64,000 bases of DNA from Vicinamibacterales bacterium (GCA_965262505.1 CBDHFM010000030.1:2528088-2592087), one strand, 5' to 3'; shown: positions 56,199 to 61,593, numbered from the stretch's first letter. Notes: generated by a model not told the origin, from the letters alone. Made by a program: numbers and translations.

Positions 56199-57660
56199 CA
56201 GCCCGTGGTGAAAGTCGAGATTAGGGATCGACACGATCGATCCCGCGTACTACACTGCCGCGCATGGCCATGGGGAAACGCCGTCGCCGTGCGGGGCAGA
56301 AGACGATGTGGGTGGCGAGCGCCGATCTGCCGCAGAGCGCGGGGCACCCGTTTTACCAGCGACTGAATCGCGTTCTCGACGACGCGGGCTTTGACGCGTT
56401 CGTCGAGGCGCAGTGCGCCAAGTTCTATGCCGACGGGGTCGGCCGACCGAGCTTGGCGCCGGGCCGCTACTTCCGGCTGTTGCTGCTCGGCTACTTTGAA
56501 GGCCTGGACTCGGAGCGCGCGATCGCGTGGCGCGCCGCCGACTCGCTGAGCATCCGCCACTTTCTGGACTTCGAGCTGCACGAGGCGCCGCCGGACCATT
56601 CGACGCTGTCGCGCGCGCGGCGGTTGATCGATGTGGAGACGCACCAAGCAGTATTTACGTGGGTGCTGCAGCAGCTGGCCGACGCGCAGCTCGTGCTGGG
56701 GCGGACGCTCGGCATCGATGCGACGACGCTGGAGGCCAATGCGGCGATGCGGAGCATCGTGCGCCGGGACACGGGCAAGGAGTACGAGGCGTGGCTGACC
56801 CAGCTCGCCGAGGCGTCCGGGATCGCCACCCCGACCCGCGCCGAGCTGGCCCGGTTTGATCGGAAGCGCAAGAAGAAGGGGTCCAACGACGACTGGACGC
56901 ACCCGCAGGATCCGGACGCGAAGATCACGAAGCTGAAGGACGGGCGCACGCACCTCGCGCACAAAGCCGAGCACGCGGTGGACCTGGAGACGGGCGCGGT
57001 CGTCAGCGTCACGGTGCAGGACGCCGACGACGGGGACACGACGACGATGGTGGAGACCCTCATCACCGCCGCCGAACGACTCGCGGTGGTGGCCGACGCC
57101 GGCCTCGCCGAGATCGTGGGCGACAAGGGGTATCACAGCAATCAGACGCTGACCGAGTTTGTCGACATCGGGCTGCGCAGCTACATCTCGGAACCGGACC
57201 GCGGGCGCCGCAACTGGAAGGGGAAGGCCGACGCCCGAGCCGCCGTATATGCCAACCGGCGACGGATTCGGGGCGCCCGCGGGCAACGCCTGTTGCGGCA
57301 GCGCGGCGAACGGCTTGAACGTCCCAATGCCCATCTCTACGAAACCGGAGGAATGCGCCGGGTGCATCTGCGCGGACATCCCAACATCTTGAAACGCGTG
57401 TTGGTGCACGTCTGTGGGTTCAATCTCGGATTGCTCATGCGGCAGCTGACGGGGGTCGGTACGCCGCGGAGCCTCCAAGGCCGCGCGGCAGCCGTGCTGG
57501 AGGCCCTGACCGCTGCTCTCAGCCGCCTCTGGACTCTCGCAGCGCCTTCCTGGCCGCTCGATGCGCCAGACCGGCCGAATTCGTCGAGTATCGACGCTCG
57601 GACGCGGTGTCACGAACTCCTATCCATCGATTCGCGAATCGGTGCTTCTGCCACGGGCTG
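56199..57660 (+). mobile_element. IS1182-like insertion sequence, type b, 1462 bp
   Basis: Termini CAGCCCGTGG.. / ..CCACGGGCTG, the same 10-nt tips as type a. Abuts CTAG on both sides (56195-98, 57661-64). Confidence 0.85.
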
Positions 57661-57664
57661 CTAG
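56264..57664 (+). CDS. IS1182-like DDE transposase (about two-thirds identical to type a by eye)
   Basis: 466 aa with the same block structure as 35743..37137. The last sense codon and the TAG stop (57662-64) use bases of the flanking CTAG. Confidence 0.85.
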   Translation: MAMGKRRRRAGQKTMWVASADLPQSAGHPFYQRLNRVLDDAGFDAFVEAQCAKFYADGVGRPSLAPGRYFRLLLLGYFEGLDSERAIAWRAADSLSIRHFLDFELHEAPPDHSTLSRARRLIDVETHQAVFTWVLQQLADAQLVLGRTLGIDATTLEANAAMRSIVRRDTGKEYEAWLTQLAEASGIATPTRAELARFDRKRKKKGSNDDWTHPQDPDAKITKLKDGRTHLAHKAEHAVDLETGAVVSVTVQDADDGDTTTMVETLITAAERLAVVADAGLAEIVGDKGYHSNQTLTEFVDIGLRSYISEPDRGRRNWKGKADARAAVYANRRRIRGARGQRLLRQRGERLERPNAHLYETGGMRRVHLRGHPNILKRVLVHVCGFNLGLLMRQLTGVGTPRSLQGRAAAVLEALTAALSRLWTLAAPSWPLDAPDRPNSSSIDARTRCHELLSIDSRIGASATGC

Positions 57665-59093
57665 TACTACTTTGTCAGATTGACGAATTGCCGAGTGGAT
57701 TCGAGAGTGATCACTTTTGAGGGCATTGTACAAATTCCGCGAGTTCGATACGCTGCCGTGCGGTGCTCGATCACACCGCGACCGCGTGGCTCCGTCGGTT
57801 GCTGGCCTGGCTGGAGCCGTTCGAGGCCGGCTTCGGGCGCGCCAGTCAACGCGGCGCGTTGCGGCGCTACGTCGCCGGGTTGCTCAACGACAGTTGCCGC
57901 AAGTCCATGGAGGCGATGTGGGCGCGGTTGAGCGACCCCGGGACCTATCAGGCGTTCCAGCACTTCATCACGCATGCGCCGTGGGACGCCGAGACGGTGT
58001 GGAAGCAGCTGCGGGCGCGGGTCCCGGAGCGGACCGGCGTGTTGATCCTCGACGGCACCAGTTTTCCCAAGCAAGGGACCGCGTCGGTCGGCGTGGCGCG
58101 GCAATACTGCGGGGCACGCGGGAAAATCGCGAACTGCCAAACGGCCGTCACGGTGGCCCTGTGGACGGGGACGCGCGCCTGGATGCTGGGCGCGCAGCTC
58201 TATCTGCCGGAGACGTGGCTCACCGCTGCCCAACGGACCCGCGCCCGCATTCCCGCCGGCGTGCGCTTTCAGCCCAAGGGGCAATTGGCCCTCACGCTGC
58301 TGCGACAAGTACGCGCCGCGGGCGTGACGGTGACCGCCGTGTTGGGGGATGCCGAGTTCGGCGACAACGCCACGCGGCGGCGAACGCTGCATCGGGCCAA
58401 ACTGTCCTACGCGTTGGGGGTGTCGTCCGATCTCAAGGTCTTCCGTGGAACGCCGGCCCTCGAGACGCCGCCGCCGCCGACGGGCCGCGGCCGTCCGCGC
58501 ACGCGGCACGGCCTACCGGTCGGTACACAGACCGTCGAAGCGCGGGCCTGGGCCGCCACGCAAGCGCCTCGCCAGTGGCGGCTCGTGTCGTGGCGCAACG
58601 GCACGCATCCCCCGTGGCGCGCCCGCTTCTGTGCCGTACGGGTCACGCCCGCCCACGACTGGCGCGAGGGCCGACGGCTCGCCCCCGAGGTGTGGTTGTT
58701 GTGTCAACGCGACCTCGGCGCAACGCCTGTCACCAAGTACTACTTGGTCGATCTGCCCGCCACCACCGCGCTGCGCGGCCTCGTGCGCCTCGCGCATCAG
58801 CGCTGGGCGATCGAGCAGCAATACCAGGAGCTCAAGGACGAGATTGGGCTCGACCACTTCGAAGGCCGCAGCCTGCCGGGCTGGCAACGTCACATGGCGC
58901 TGACCGCCCTCGCCTACAGCTTTCTCCAGATGGAACGCCGCCGACGGGGACAGACACATCTCACGCTGCCGCGCGTCCGCGCCATCATCCAGGAAGTGCT
59001 GACCGCCCATTTCTTCATGACGCAACCGCACTACCTGAAGTGGATGCTCAAGCTCAAAGACGTCAAACTGCAAATCTGACAAAGTAGTACTAG
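57661..59093 (+). mobile_element. IS701-family insertion sequence, copy C (inverted relative to A and B)
   Basis: Perfect 20-bp terminal repeats. The terminal CTAG at 59090-93 is shared with the IS630-like junction. Confidence 0.9.
57763..59079 (+). CDS. IS701-family DDE transposase
   Basis: 438 aa; L->R (DNATRRRT) relative to copies A and B. Confidence 0.9.
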   Translation: MLDHTATAWLRRLLAWLEPFEAGFGRASQRGALRRYVAGLLNDSCRKSMEAMWARLSDPGTYQAFQHFITHAPWDAETVWKQLRARVPERTGVLILDGTSFPKQGTASVGVARQYCGARGKIANCQTAVTVALWTGTRAWMLGAQLYLPETWLTAAQRTRARIPAGVRFQPKGQLALTLLRQVRAAGVTVTAVLGDAEFGDNATRRRTLHRAKLSYALGVSSDLKVFRGTPALETPPPPTGRGRPRTRHGLPVGTQTVEARAWAATQAPRQWRLVSWRNGTHPPWRARFCAVRVTPAHDWREGRRLAPEVWLLCQRDLGATPVTKYYLVDLPATTALRGLVRLAHQRWAIEQQYQELKDEIGLDHFEGRSLPGWQRHMALTALAYSFLQMERRRRGQTHLTLPRVRAIIQEVLTAHFFMTQPHYLKWMLKLKDVKLQI

Positions 59094-60558
59094 TACCTCG
59101 CCGCAGTGGATCTGACCGGTTCACGCGGCGGCTTTGGCCCGACCAGCGGGTTGCGGATACACACGGCCGAGCTTTTCGCGAGCACGGTCGACTGTAAACA
59201 TCCAGTGGATGCGCGCCTTCTCGTCATTGCGCCGTTGCTCCCATGCCGCGATCTCCTTGATGAGGATCGCCTTGGCAGGGATCCGACGATCGAGGCACTG
59301 CTTGACCATCACGCCGATTTCGATCTCGACCATGTTGAGCCAGCTGGCGTGTTTCGGCGTGAAGTGAAACTCGAGCCGACGGAGAATCCGTCGTGCCTCG
59401 GCGGGATCGAAGGCGTGGTAGAGCGCTGCCGCTGAATGTGCCGAAAGATTGTCGAGCACCACACGGATCCGTTCGGCCTCCGGGTAGTGCTCATCGACGA
59501 GATCGCGCATGCACTCTGCGAAGTCGACGCACGTGCGTTGGTCGGTGACCTTGGCATGTCGCCAGGAGCGATTCACGTCTACGAACATGAAGACATTCGC
59601 CGTGCCGTTGCGCACGTACTCGTAGTCGACTCGTCTGGGCTTCCCGGGCTTGGCCCGAATCGGGACACGCGCTTCGCCGATCAGTTGCCGGGGTGTTTCA
59701 TCGAAGCCGACGACCGGTCGCCGCGGATCCGGCGGCTCGGCGTAGAGATCGAGGACGTCTTCCATTCGCGCCACGTACTCGGCGTTGACCGTCGGAATGC
59801 ACCACATCTTCTCCTGCCACGGCTTCAGCGCCATCTCGGCAAGCCGGCGACCCACCGTGTCGCCCGACAGGGCCTCGTGCGAGGTGAGTCGCACCATCTC
59901 GCGGGCCAGGAGATCCAGTGTCCATCGCGCACGCCCGGAGGGTGGATGTGAGCAAGCGACCGCGACCAGGAGGGCTTCATCGCTGGCGCCGAGCTTGCGC
60001 GGCGCGCCGGGACGGGGCACTTCGCGGAGCGCTCGGTCCAGTCCTTCCTCGACGAAGCGTTGCTTGGTCCGGTACACGGTCGACGTGCCGACACCAACGT
60101 TGAGCGCGATCATCTCGTCGGTGGATGTGGCGTCCGCGGCGAGGAGAATCTGCGCCCGCTTGATCTTGCGAACCGCCCCCTGGCCGCCGCTCACAAGCGC
60201 CTGAAGCTGTTGCTGTTCATCGTAGGTCAGCGTGATGCGATAGCGTATGTGCATGGACATCTTGGATCACCTTCCCGATCCCGTGTCCAGCCGTTCATCA
60301 CCGAGATTCACCCAGAAGCAGGGCCAGTACCTAGCCTTCCTCTACACGTACACGCTCCTTCACCGAACGCCACCGGCCGAAGCGGACTTCCAACGGTTCT
60401 TTCAGGTCACGCCCCCGGCCGTCCACCACATGACCGTCGAGCTTGAGCGGCGCGGTCTGATCAGTCGGGTTCCACGCCAACCCCGGACGATCAAGCTGTT
60501 GTTGTCGGCAGAGGAACTACCCTCGTTGCAACCGATCAAAACCACTGCGGCAAGGTAC
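59093..60558 (-). mobile_element. IS630-family-like insertion sequence carrying a passenger ORF, 1466 bp
   Basis: 17-bp terminal inverted repeats: GTACCTCGCCGCAGTGG (59093-59109) and the reverse complement of CCACTGCGGCAAGGTAC (60542-60558), one mismatch. TA at 59091-92 and 60559-60. The outer bases C and G recreate a CTAG target. Confidence 0.8.
59121..60260 (-). CDS. IS630-family DDE transposase
   Basis: 379 aa. N-terminal HTH (GVGTSTVYRTKQRF), then FDETPRQL, VLDNLSAHS and TPKHASWLNMVEIE, a DDE/D pattern typical of IS630/Tc1-like enzymes. Confidence 0.85.
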   Translation of the reverse strand: MSMHIRYRITLTYDEQQQLQALVSGGQGAVRKIKRAQILLAADATSTDEMIALNVGVGTSTVYRTKQRFVEEGLDRALREVPRPGAPRKLGASDEALLVAVACSHPPSGRARWTLDLLAREMVRLTSHEALSGDTVGRRLAEMALKPWQEKMWCIPTVNAEYVARMEDVLDLYAEPPDPRRPVVGFDETPRQLIGEARVPIRAKPGKPRRVDYEYVRNGTANVFMFVDVNRSWRHAKVTDQRTCVDFAECMRDLVDEHYPEAERIRVVLDNLSAHSAAALYHAFDPAEARRILRRLEFHFTPKHASWLNMVEIEIGVMVKQCLDRRIPAKAILIKEIAAWEQRRNDEKARIHWMFTVDRAREKLGRVYPQPAGRAKAAA

Positions 60559-60561
60559 TAG
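60253..60561 (+). CDS. Small winged-helix protein resembling the LexA N-terminal DNA-binding domain, passenger ORF of the IS630-like element
   Basis: FTQKQGQYLAFLYTYTLLHRTPPAEADFQRFFQVTPPAVHHMTVELERRGLISRVPRQPRTIKLL follows the LexA-DBD pattern (LTxRQ..L.FI....G.PP...EI......S...V..HL..LE.KG.I.R....R.I.L). Possible starts at 60247 or 60253. The stop TAG at 60559-61 lies outside the IS. Confidence 0.5.
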   Translation: MDILDHLPDPVSSRSSPRFTQKQGQYLAFLYTYTLLHRTPPAEADFQRFFQVTPPAVHHMTVELERRGLISRVPRQPRTIKLLLSAEELPSLQPIKTTAARY

Positions 60562-60615
60562 GGCCAGCATGCCGGCGGCCAATGTGGAGAACGCGACGCG
60601 GTAATAACGAATCAT
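60562..60615 (-). pseudogene. OmpA-family protein, displaced 5' end (18 codons of signal peptide)
   Basis: Minus strand: ATG ATT CGT TAT TAC CGC GTC GCG TTC TCC ACA TTG GCC GCC GGC ATG CTG GCC = MIRYYRVAFSTLAAGMLA. The ATG overlaps the stop of the upstream gene (ATGA). Confidence 0.75.
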
Positions 60616-61436
60616 TGAAGGCTCCCATCGGGGTTGAAGATCTCGCCAATCGTTAGAGTTGTCTCACGGCGATAGGTCTGCCCCAGGACCCGGCCGCCGA
60701 CATCACTCACCGCCGTGAGGACGTCGGTCTGCTGATCGTATTCGAGCGTCATGGTCAGCTTACCGATGGACATGCTCGCGCAGTTGTTGCACGTGACGTC
60801 GACGTCGGCGCCCGGGCACCGGATGGCGATTGGCACCATGTCGGTGCGGAAGTTCGCCCGCAGCGTGAACGGCCCGACCGGCTGGGACGGTGAGCCGCCG
60901 CTGCTTTGCACGTAGATGTCCGAGCGCACGGCGCCGCTGAACACCGCGGACTCCCGGCAGGGCGTCACCCCGAGTCCGGCTGGCAGCGGCGGCAGGGACA
61001 AGCCGCAGGTGGGGGCGGCGGCCGCGCCCTCGATGCAGAACTTCTCGGTGAGCCACTCCTCCTGCGCCATGACGCCTGCGACCGTGGCATCCGACTCGAA
61101 CACGGCAGCCGGGAGGATCTGGAGCCTCTTGCCGGCCACGTTGCCGATGAGCGCGTTCGTGCCGAACTGGATCTGCTGGCTCACCAGTATCCAGGTGCCG
61201 AGCAGTTCCGAGAGGTCGGGGACGACGCAGGGGCCAAGGCCGCCGAAGTCGCTGTCATAGAGATAACCGAGATCCCAGCCCATCGAGATCGCGGTGAAGG
61301 CCACACCCGGCGAGCAGGTGGCACTCGATAGCACTCCTTCGTATGGGTTCTGGCCGGCCTGTGCTGGCCGCACCGATCCCAGCGCGAGTACGCTCACCAC
61401 GACGGCAACCCCAAGCGCGCGCAAACGGACTGTCAT
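60612..61436 (-). CDS. Secreted cysteine-containing protein of unknown function
   Basis: 274 aa. Signal peptide MTVRLRALGVAVVVSVLALGSVRPAQA/GQ; 8 Cys in the mature part; no motif recognised. Confidence 0.65.
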   Translation of the reverse strand: MTVRLRALGVAVVVSVLALGSVRPAQAGQNPYEGVLSSATCSPGVAFTAISMGWDLGYLYDSDFGGLGPCVVPDLSELLGTWILVSQQIQFGTNALIGNVAGKRLQILPAAVFESDATVAGVMAQEEWLTEKFCIEGAAAAPTCGLSLPPLPAGLGVTPCRESAVFSGAVRSDIYVQSSGGSPSQPVGPFTLRANFRTDMVPIAIRCPGADVDVTCNNCASMSIGKLTMTLEYDQQTDVLTAVSDVGGRVLGQTYRRETTLTIGEIFNPDGSLQ

Positions 61437-61593
61437 CGGTATCTCCTCGTGGCGCGCGGGAAGCGGTGTGCTCCACGCAGCGGCCGCCTGAGATTGCCTG
61501 AAAACCAGGCGACGGTCAAGAATAGCGAGGCGCCGCGTCGATGCTGCGGTCCCGGTAGCCGGGGCTTACGCCCCGCCGACGTAAGATCGTCTG

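Follow-up and report, generated by a model that had tools for sequence, protein, structure and literature searches.

The 64,000-nucleotide stretch of Vicinamibacterales DNA analysed here (the window; all positions are counted from its first letter) contains an intact insertion sequence (IS) of the IS630 family at 59093-60558. The element is 1,466 bp long, is bounded by two 17-bp terminal inverted repeats, and lies within a duplicated TA in a CTAG target. It encodes two genes: an IS630-family DDE transposase on the minus strand (59121-60260; 379 amino acids, aa, as the longest open reading frame, ORF), and a divergent small ORF on the plus strand (60247-60561 including its TAG; 104 aa in the longest call, 102 aa when counted from the ATG at 60253). 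An earlier, sequence-only reading of this DNA had drawn attention to the small ORF, likening its product to the N-terminal winged helix of LexA and suggesting either a regulator of transposition or a cargo protein. In this study, we follow this small gene through its relatives and ask what it may do for the element that carries it.

The left terminal inverted repeat, GTACCTCGCCGCAGTGG, occupies 59093-59109 on the plus strand, with weaker repeat similarity continuing to about 59121, and the right one, which reads GTACCTTGCCGCAGTGG on the minus strand, occupies 60542-60558. The two repeats are identical at 16 of 17 positions and do enclose both genes, as had been proposed. The similarity between the two ends is 88% over 32 nt once the flanking CTAG is counted, with weaker symmetry over about 30 nt, and a pattern search of the window returned two exact sites only, where 0.46 matches are expected by chance with 3 mismatches permitted. 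The left copy of the duplicated TA (59091-59092) is preceded by C59090 of the CTAG, and the right copy, together with G60561, forms the TAG stop of the small ORF on the plus strand (60559-60561), giving the layout C-TA-element-TA-G. A TA duplication within CTAG is the classic signature of IS630 elements.

The transposase scores 223 bits against NF033545 (cut-off 100) and 96.9 bits against Pfam DDE_3, matches HTH_32, HTH_29 and HTH_23 at its N-terminus, and ends on its own TGA (59121-59123), just inside the left repeat and within the element. Both the transposase and the TA- and CTAG-flanked repeats place the element in IS630; it departs from the usual description of such elements, in which the transposase gene, sometimes split by a frameshift, is the sole gene, by its second conserved gene, which leaves its family membership unaffected. 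It shares the NF033545 DDE transposase, the short inverted repeats, the TA duplication and the CTAG preference with the IS630/ISY100/Tc1-mariner elements, but compared with single-gene IS630 elements such as ISAcma30 (about 1.2 kb) it is about 300 bp longer and has a second, divergent DNA-binding gene. A known RNA in the extra 300 bp is not supported: over 57500-61500, Rfam gave nothing at E values up to 1.

Conservation and spread of the small gene

Homologues of the small gene form 1,204 protein clusters in a search of 5.8 billion proteins, and the top 120 of these are 70-97% identical to it and mostly 102-104 aa long. In a scan of one genome per prokaryotic species, at least 577 places encode a relative, in hosts that include Vicinamibacterales, Myxococcota, Planctomycetota, Alpha-, Beta- and Gammaproteobacteria, and others. 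The best genomic match (L001) is 96% identical, and one metagenome-assembled genome of Vicinamibacterales holds at least six copies, all intact. Plasmids of Bradyrhizobium, Rhizobium, Ralstonia solanacearum, Mesorhizobium and Ensifer also carry the gene, where it adjoins an "IS630 family transposase" and its annotations range from MarR regulator and SOS response repressor to helix-turn-helix protein and hypothetical protein. Among plasmid records, 102 have a transposase at 60-80% identity and 106 have the small gene. The small ORF, which had been reported from one copy, is retained in others: all seven plasmid copies that we inspected contain both genes (transposase at least 62% identical), and the ORF also lies inside the full elements described below.

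The sequence-only reading had named three observations that would speak against an element gene, namely absence or disruption of the small ORF in other copies, a ratio of nonsynonymous to synonymous substitution (dN/dS) of about 1, and an element end upstream of the ORF that would make it a host gene. None of the three applies. For the small gene, 416 usable pairs give a median Nei-Gojobori dN/dS of 0.18, with a highest value of 0.43, and conservation at the three codon positions, measured in 34 distinct elements, is 0.75/0.83/0.57 in the core of the small ORF versus 0.84/0.86/0.60 in the transposase. The boundaries lie beyond the ORF throughout the family and read CTA/GTACC...GGTAC/TAG, with the left CTA in 35 and the right TAG in 37 of 38 full elements whose flanks are unrelated to one another. 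These 38 elements, from Acidobacteriota, Myxococcota, Planctomycetota and Alpha-, Beta- and Gammaproteobacteria, are 1459-1525 bp long. In addition, the further two copies have diverged in the transposase, the further they have diverged in the core of the small gene (Spearman 0.71 over 528 non-independent pairs).

A chance frame in a non-coding element end, or a flanking host gene, is an explanation to which we give almost no weight. High-GC DNA does yield many spurious ORFs, and the Pfam score of the window's copy falls just below the cut-off, but the low dN/dS, the three-base periodicity, the more than 1,200 homologues, the confidently modelled winged helix over residues 21-90 and the presence of the terminal repeat downstream of the ORF core in every copy all contradict this explanation, and we consider it excluded by the element boundaries, the codon periodicity and the dN/dS. 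The small gene is real and conserved, it is under purifying selection, and it is part of the element. The clade of two-gene IS630 elements of about 1.46-1.53 kb to which it belongs is widespread, and soil bacteria commonly carry elements with this layout.

ISAcma30 of Acaryochloris has a transposase 54% identical to that of the window and CTAG-flanked repeats, but it measures about 1,207 bp, with about 78 nt upstream of the transposase, and is without the small gene. Since the gene is present in close plasmid relatives and absent from this next group out, it apparently entered the space between the transposase start and the right repeat in a single old acquisition and has been kept since.

Some copies are damaged. 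The small ORF is disrupted or frameshifted in L067 (Steroidobacteraceae) and in L062 and L065 (Acidobacteriota), and in the last two the transposase match is also in pieces, so that they have the appearance of decaying copies. Several loci appeared to be without a transposase (L013, L022, L029 and the group of L121, L124, L126, L128 and L136). L013 retains a stub of the transposase start, and in L121, L128 and L136 the transposase is not missing but is set apart from the small gene by an insert of about 330 nt. We found no left repeat close upstream in any of these loci, and a mini-element carrying the regulator by itself is therefore unsupported.

Fold of the small protein

The conserved part of the small protein is a winged helix-turn-helix core of the LexA DNA-binding-domain type, encoded by codons 21-94 (60307-60528, plus strand). 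The copy in the window scores 22.9 bits against Pfam LexA_DNA_bind (PF01726), just below the cut-off of 23.7; many relatives carry a precomputed match to this family, and homologues outside IS elements score 23.6-41.7 bits. A profile of the small-protein family matches the N-terminal domain of Thermotoga maritima LexA (3k2z, E = 5e-7) as well as that of Escherichia coli LexA. The AlphaFold2 model has a mean predicted local distance difference test (pLDDT) score of 70.8, rising to about 78-85 over residues 21-90, with helices at 23-39, 45-52 and 56-68 and wing strands at 72-74 and 81-84; residues 1-16 and 98-104 are disordered, with pLDDT below 50 for the latter. Foldseek ranks LexA first (3k2z, 3jso), followed by MepR/MarR and DtxR/IdeR.

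The structured part comprises about 75 residues. With the protein ending at residue 104 there is no room for an S24 peptidase, and the LexA repressor profile TIGR00498 is matched over positions 4-73 only (26.8 bits against a cut-off of 110.95), which indicates a LexA-type DNA-binding domain and not LexA. The fold and a detectable sequence similarity are thus shared with LexA, whereas the S24 peptidase/dimerisation domain is absent. The same fold is found in the MarR and DtxR repressors, but the small protein has neither the dimerisation helices of the former nor the metal-binding domain of the latter: PF01047 gives 18.8 bits (cut-off 24.6), and the model consists of three helices and a two-strand wing between disordered termini. 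From its sequence and predicted structure, then, the small protein consists of a winged helix of the kind found in the LexA DNA-binding domain and lacks any effector or peptidase domain, which agrees with the fold first assigned to it. An inhibitor derived from a truncated transposase, of the IS1 InsA or Tn5 type, was considered and rejected, as hhalign gives a probability of 0.4% against transposase residues 1-140.

Homologues also exist away from transposases. These free-standing proteins are about 80-90 aa long and end directly after an ELPxL motif (about residue 95). Their contexts are mixed (an SNF2 helicase with NOV_C, a ParA-like ATPase, an AbiEi-like gene, a fusion to PRiA4_ORF3) and offered no specific functional clue, and in PHROGs the only match is phrog_3502 (E = 7.5e-8), a family of unknown function. 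The fusions are found in two Latescibacterota loci (L057 2395-3225 and L066 2413-3225), where proteins of 270-277 aa combine PRiA4_ORF3 (PF07929, 219 bits) with a C-terminal winged helix that scores 41.7 bits against LexA_DNA_bind and is 64-66% identical to the window's protein.

These homologous domains, in contexts that resemble mobile elements or defence systems, lend some colour to the second proposal of the sequence-only reading, in which the small gene is cargo acting on the host, either as a free LexA-type domain on host genes or by outward transcription that drives neighbouring genes. The gene does point outward, and a consensus scan found no terminator. Purifying selection in elements of at least six phyla, however, fits a function tied to the element better than one tied to a host regulon, and the insertion sites are mutually unrelated. 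We regard cargo as quite unlikely and retain it as a rival to the regulator reading, the half of the original proposal that we find the most economical.

Start codons, stop codon and target site

The sequence-only reading had described start codons that overlap head to head within a near-palindrome. This description holds for the longest ORFs in the window, where ATGTGCATGGACAT at 60247-60260 contains ATG codons on both strands and the overlap amounts to 8-14 nt, but it does not hold for the family: an overlapping in-frame ATG occurs in 84 of 123 distinct copies and is missing from the other 39, and the conserved starts are separate. On the transposase side, the conserved start is the ATG at 60254 (377 aa), codon 3 of the longest ORF, which is 100% conserved while codons 1 and 2 are not. 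It encodes M-(N/H)-I-R-Y-R, and the transposases of relatives begin MN(I/V)RYR; the upstream M-S at 60260 is a trait of the window's clade only. A putative Shine-Dalgarno sequence for the transposase, GGTGATCC, lies on the minus strand at 60264-60271, inside the long form of the small ORF, and its spacing to the ATG is identical in relatives of the L004 type.

On the other side, the small gene probably starts at the GTG of codon 13 (60283-60285, plus strand), which would give a protein of 92 aa. An ATG, GTG or TTG is present at or within a few codons of this position in 117 of the 123 copies, and the exact position has GTG in 29 copies, ATG in 26, and no other valine codon. Per-codon conservation reveals a coding pattern over codons 21-94 and none over codons 1-20 across the family; upstream of codon 13, L139 has an in-frame stop, and L137, L128 and L136 have frameshifts. 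The starts are therefore probably at 60254 and 60283, with no overlap and a gap of 28 nt. The plus-strand ATGs at 60247 and 60253 are the reverse complement of the Asn-Ile codons of the transposase and of the CATG at its start, and the near-palindrome is largely a by-product of these.

In the window's clade, 22-28 nt separate the two conserved starts. Because this gap also holds the Shine-Dalgarno sequence of the transposase, each promoter would have to lie inside the other gene, and on this point the original description is upheld. Elsewhere the spacing differs: PGAP annotation leaves 28-48 nt between the two genes in copies from Rhizobium, Ensifer, Skermanella and Ralstonia, and in three metagenome loci (L121, L128, L136) about 330 nt are inserted between the genes, with a GATCA-containing sequence at both edges; this insert may be a small nested element or an expanded control region. 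Could the overlapping, near-palindromic starts themselves be a regulatory device, in which transcription or translation of one gene excludes the other? The overlap of the ATGs in the window's clade and in 84 of the 123 copies, as well as the facing promoters that so short a gap makes unavoidable, would suit such a device. Yet 39 copies are without the overlapping ATG, the gap reaches 28-48 nt or about 330 nt in some, codons 1-12 have no coding signature family-wide, the stretch contains the stop of L139 and the frameshift of L137, and the start at codon 13 is ATG or GTG only. Taken together, these observations make the device very unlikely in our view.

At its other end, the small ORF runs through the right repeat and terminates in GCA AGG TAC/TAG, the stop at 60559-60561 consisting of the right TA and G60561. 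The claim that the CTAG target supplies the stop is confirmed well beyond the window. Among 126 distinct transposase-linked copies, 111 have as their stop the codon that directly follows the tip (TAG in 110, TAA in 1): 105 end in GTAC/TAG, 5 have a variant tip followed by TAG, and 1 has GTAC/TAA. Where the flank differs, the frame reads on, for about 7 codons in L044 and for 6 codons in L118. We did not locate the left end of L150, the single copy that terminates in TAA.

The last ten codons, 95-104 (QPIKTTAARY; 60529-60558, plus strand), derive from the right repeat together with its inner part. Per-codon conservation finds them conserved at all three positions, and this implies a constraint on the repeat DNA and not on the protein. 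The tail is absent from copies that stop early (L030, L058, L059 and L085 of Skermanella) and from the free-standing homologues, and from these comparisons is probably dispensable. A target-derived stop has a precedent, so that this part of the layout is not new to IS630. According to the summary of Fournier et al. (1993) given in PMC13630536, ORF1 of IS870, an IS630-family element of Agrobacterium vitis, ends on a TAG from a 5'-CTAG-3' target; both elements thus have an ORF without its own stop, but in IS870, as that citing summary describes it, the ORF concerned is the large one, taken as the transposase, whereas here it is an accessory gene. The second gene is the part that does appear new: we found no description of it in IS630 elements in the searchable literature, a search that did not extend to ISfinder and TnPedia. 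What appears to be new is the conserved accessory winged-helix gene; the IS630 family and the target-derived stop were known already.

The assignment of the G to the target is supported by a second transposon. A separate IS701-family element, on the plus strand at 57661-59093, consists of a transposase (57763-59079; NF033540, 349 bits) and 21-nt inverted repeats, CTAGTACTACTTTGTCAGATT, at 57661-57681 and 59073-59093; its left tip is intact and begins with CTAG. The IS630-like element sits in the CTAG at its right tip; this CTAG either closes the IS701 repeat as its final four bases or is a 4-bp target duplication made by IS701. When the IS630-like element and one TA are removed in silico, ...GTAGTACTAG is restored at the right tip, and this restored tip, together with the intact CTAG of the left tip, supports the view that G60561 is target and not element. 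The reconstructed tip is the nearest that we have to an empty site.

Across the family the repeat tip is GTACC-N5-C(A/G)CAG and the flank consensus is R-CTAG-Y; outside CTAG the base bias is symmetrical, towards R on the left and Y on the right, which fits a preference for a palindromic target. The element tip joined to its target recreates CTAG, and the ends of existing copies would therefore be preferred targets themselves. Seven copies (L092, L111, L112, L131, L118, L121 and L145) adjoin another copy and share the TA (GGTAC/TA/GTACC), and the insertion at the IS701 tip in the window follows the same logic. Consecutive IS630 duplicates have also been reported in a study of the Bradyrhizobium mobilome.

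Two alphaproteobacterial copies, L044 and L080, have flanks other than CTA and TAG. L080 has the left flank of L044, and the two flanks of L044 are inverted repeats of each other (TTGACAGCAATCATGAGA, the element, then TCTCATGATTGCTGTCAA); the element may be nested here in another repeat pair, or these copies may represent a subgroup with longer ends. Just downstream of the element, the window has a 274-aa ORF (60612-61436, minus strand) that matches nothing in Pfam and contains a hydrophobic stretch near its N-terminus.

A candidate regulator of the transposase

What, then, does the small protein do? Its fixation throughout a deep clade and its co-divergence with the transposase point to a function for the element itself. 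We lean, with a little better than even confidence, towards a transcriptional regulator, probably a repressor, that the element itself encodes and that acts on the transposase promoter facing the small gene. In this proposal the small winged-helix protein would bind the short intergenic region and control the transposase promoter, and probably its own as well, thereby limiting transposition in cells that already carry the element. The gene is pressed close against the repeat: its winged-helix domain ends at about codon 94, and the frame continues through 30 bp of repeat DNA to the TAG made of the TA and the target G. In favour of the regulator reading are the repressor-type fold, the location of the gene, its retention across many hosts, and the existence of relatives that transpose without it. 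We infer the DNA binding, the repression and the promoter positions from these features.

The site of binding would be the dyad GGATC-N8-GATCC at 60264-60281, between the conserved starts, a candidate operator whose pattern is the one expected if a winged-helix protein bound there as a dimer. Over 58 distinct sequences from the window's clade, its arms are conserved at 0.72-0.90 and its spacer at 0.43-0.66, and GATC-N8-GATC is kept in 40 of the 58. Other subfamilies have TGATCA or TGAATCA at the equivalent position, in 16 of 34 elements versus 0.015 per control window. The intergenic motif is GATC-based in elements of Acidobacteriota and Myxococcota and is TGAATCA, which contains GANTC, in proteobacterial elements. 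Dam-type methylases recognise GATC and CcrM-type methylases GANTC, and IS10 and IS50 are controlled by methylation; by analogy, methylation control of the transposase is a possibility here too. An operator that resembles the repeats was rejected: in nearly all of the 34 elements, the longest words that the repeats share with the intergenic region are matched in length by shuffled controls, a result that argues neither for nor against a repressor.

Several points count against the repressor reading. The counts by which we measure conservation are inflated by shared ancestry. The small protein has no evident dimerisation module. Outside the window's clade the dyad itself is not conserved, its place being taken by TGATCA, TGAATCA or nothing obvious, and a pair of Dam/CcrM-type methylation sites, or a portion of the transposase ribosome-binding site, would explain it just as well. 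Finally, a consensus scan, of little value for the probable acidobacterial host, found no sigma-70-like promoter or terminator in 59000-60700.

Alternatively, the small protein may be a cofactor of transposition that binds the repeats or the target and helps to assemble or direct the transposition complex. Its strict co-inheritance with this transposase clade, the strict CTAG preference of the clade, and the motif C(A/G)CAG / CTG(T/C)G conserved in the repeats, which we take to resemble half a LexA box, are compatible with such a role. We nevertheless judge it unlikely. ISAcma30 uses the same CTAG/TA target without the small gene, the region adjoining the small gene shares no motif with the repeats, and the back-to-back arrangement of the small gene with the transposase start is one typical of regulators. 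Moreover, the ISY100 transposase is sufficient in vitro and requires no other protein (PMC2170065), and ISAcma30 and ISY100 together show that the IS630 family at large does not need the small gene.

A regulator carried by the element would have company among better-known transposons, in which Tn3 TnpR (with divergent tnpA and tnpR and the control site between them), IS1 InsA, OrfA of IS3/IS911 and the Tn5 inhibitor are element-encoded regulators. By analogy, our element resembles Tn3 in its divergent genes and what would be a shared control region, but the small protein is without the recombinase domain of TnpR; it would resemble InsA of IS1 and OrfA of IS911 in its expected purpose, to limit the transposase, but unlike InsA, OrfA and the Tn5 inhibitor it derives neither from the transposase frame nor from the transposase DNA-binding domain. 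Passenger genes of IS elements are usually sporadic and beneficial to the host. The small gene has in common with passenger-gene elements (transporter IS, tIS) that it is an extra, non-transposase gene, but here it is fixed in a deep clade and diverges together with the transposase.

A more far-reaching version of the regulator reading, which we put forward as speculative and rather doubtful, would make the small protein the first known dedicated trans-acting repressor in IS630/Tc1/mariner elements and combine two levels of control. In trans, the repressor would shut off the promoter of every copy in the cell, a copy-number control similar to phage immunity. In cis, transcription and translation across the right repeat would hinder the use of that end. 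In addition, with the stop supplied by the target, the C-terminus would report whether the element sits at a proper CTAG site.

These considerations also bear on annotation, because pipelines treat the small gene as though it regulated the host, under labels such as MarR regulator, SOS response repressor and LexA, and place its start inconsistently. The hypothesis is directly testable, since copies exist in the cultivable and genetically tractable Rhizobium tropici CIAT 899, Ralstonia solanacearum and Bradyrhizobium. The IS630/Tc1/mariner elements are the textbook minimal transposons, with one gene, no host factors, and regulation by frameshifting or by inhibition through excess transposase. 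That a deep clade, found in Acidobacteriota, Myxococcota, rhizobia and Ralstonia solanacearum, has kept a DNA-binding gene beside the transposase suggests that another form of transposition control exists among them.

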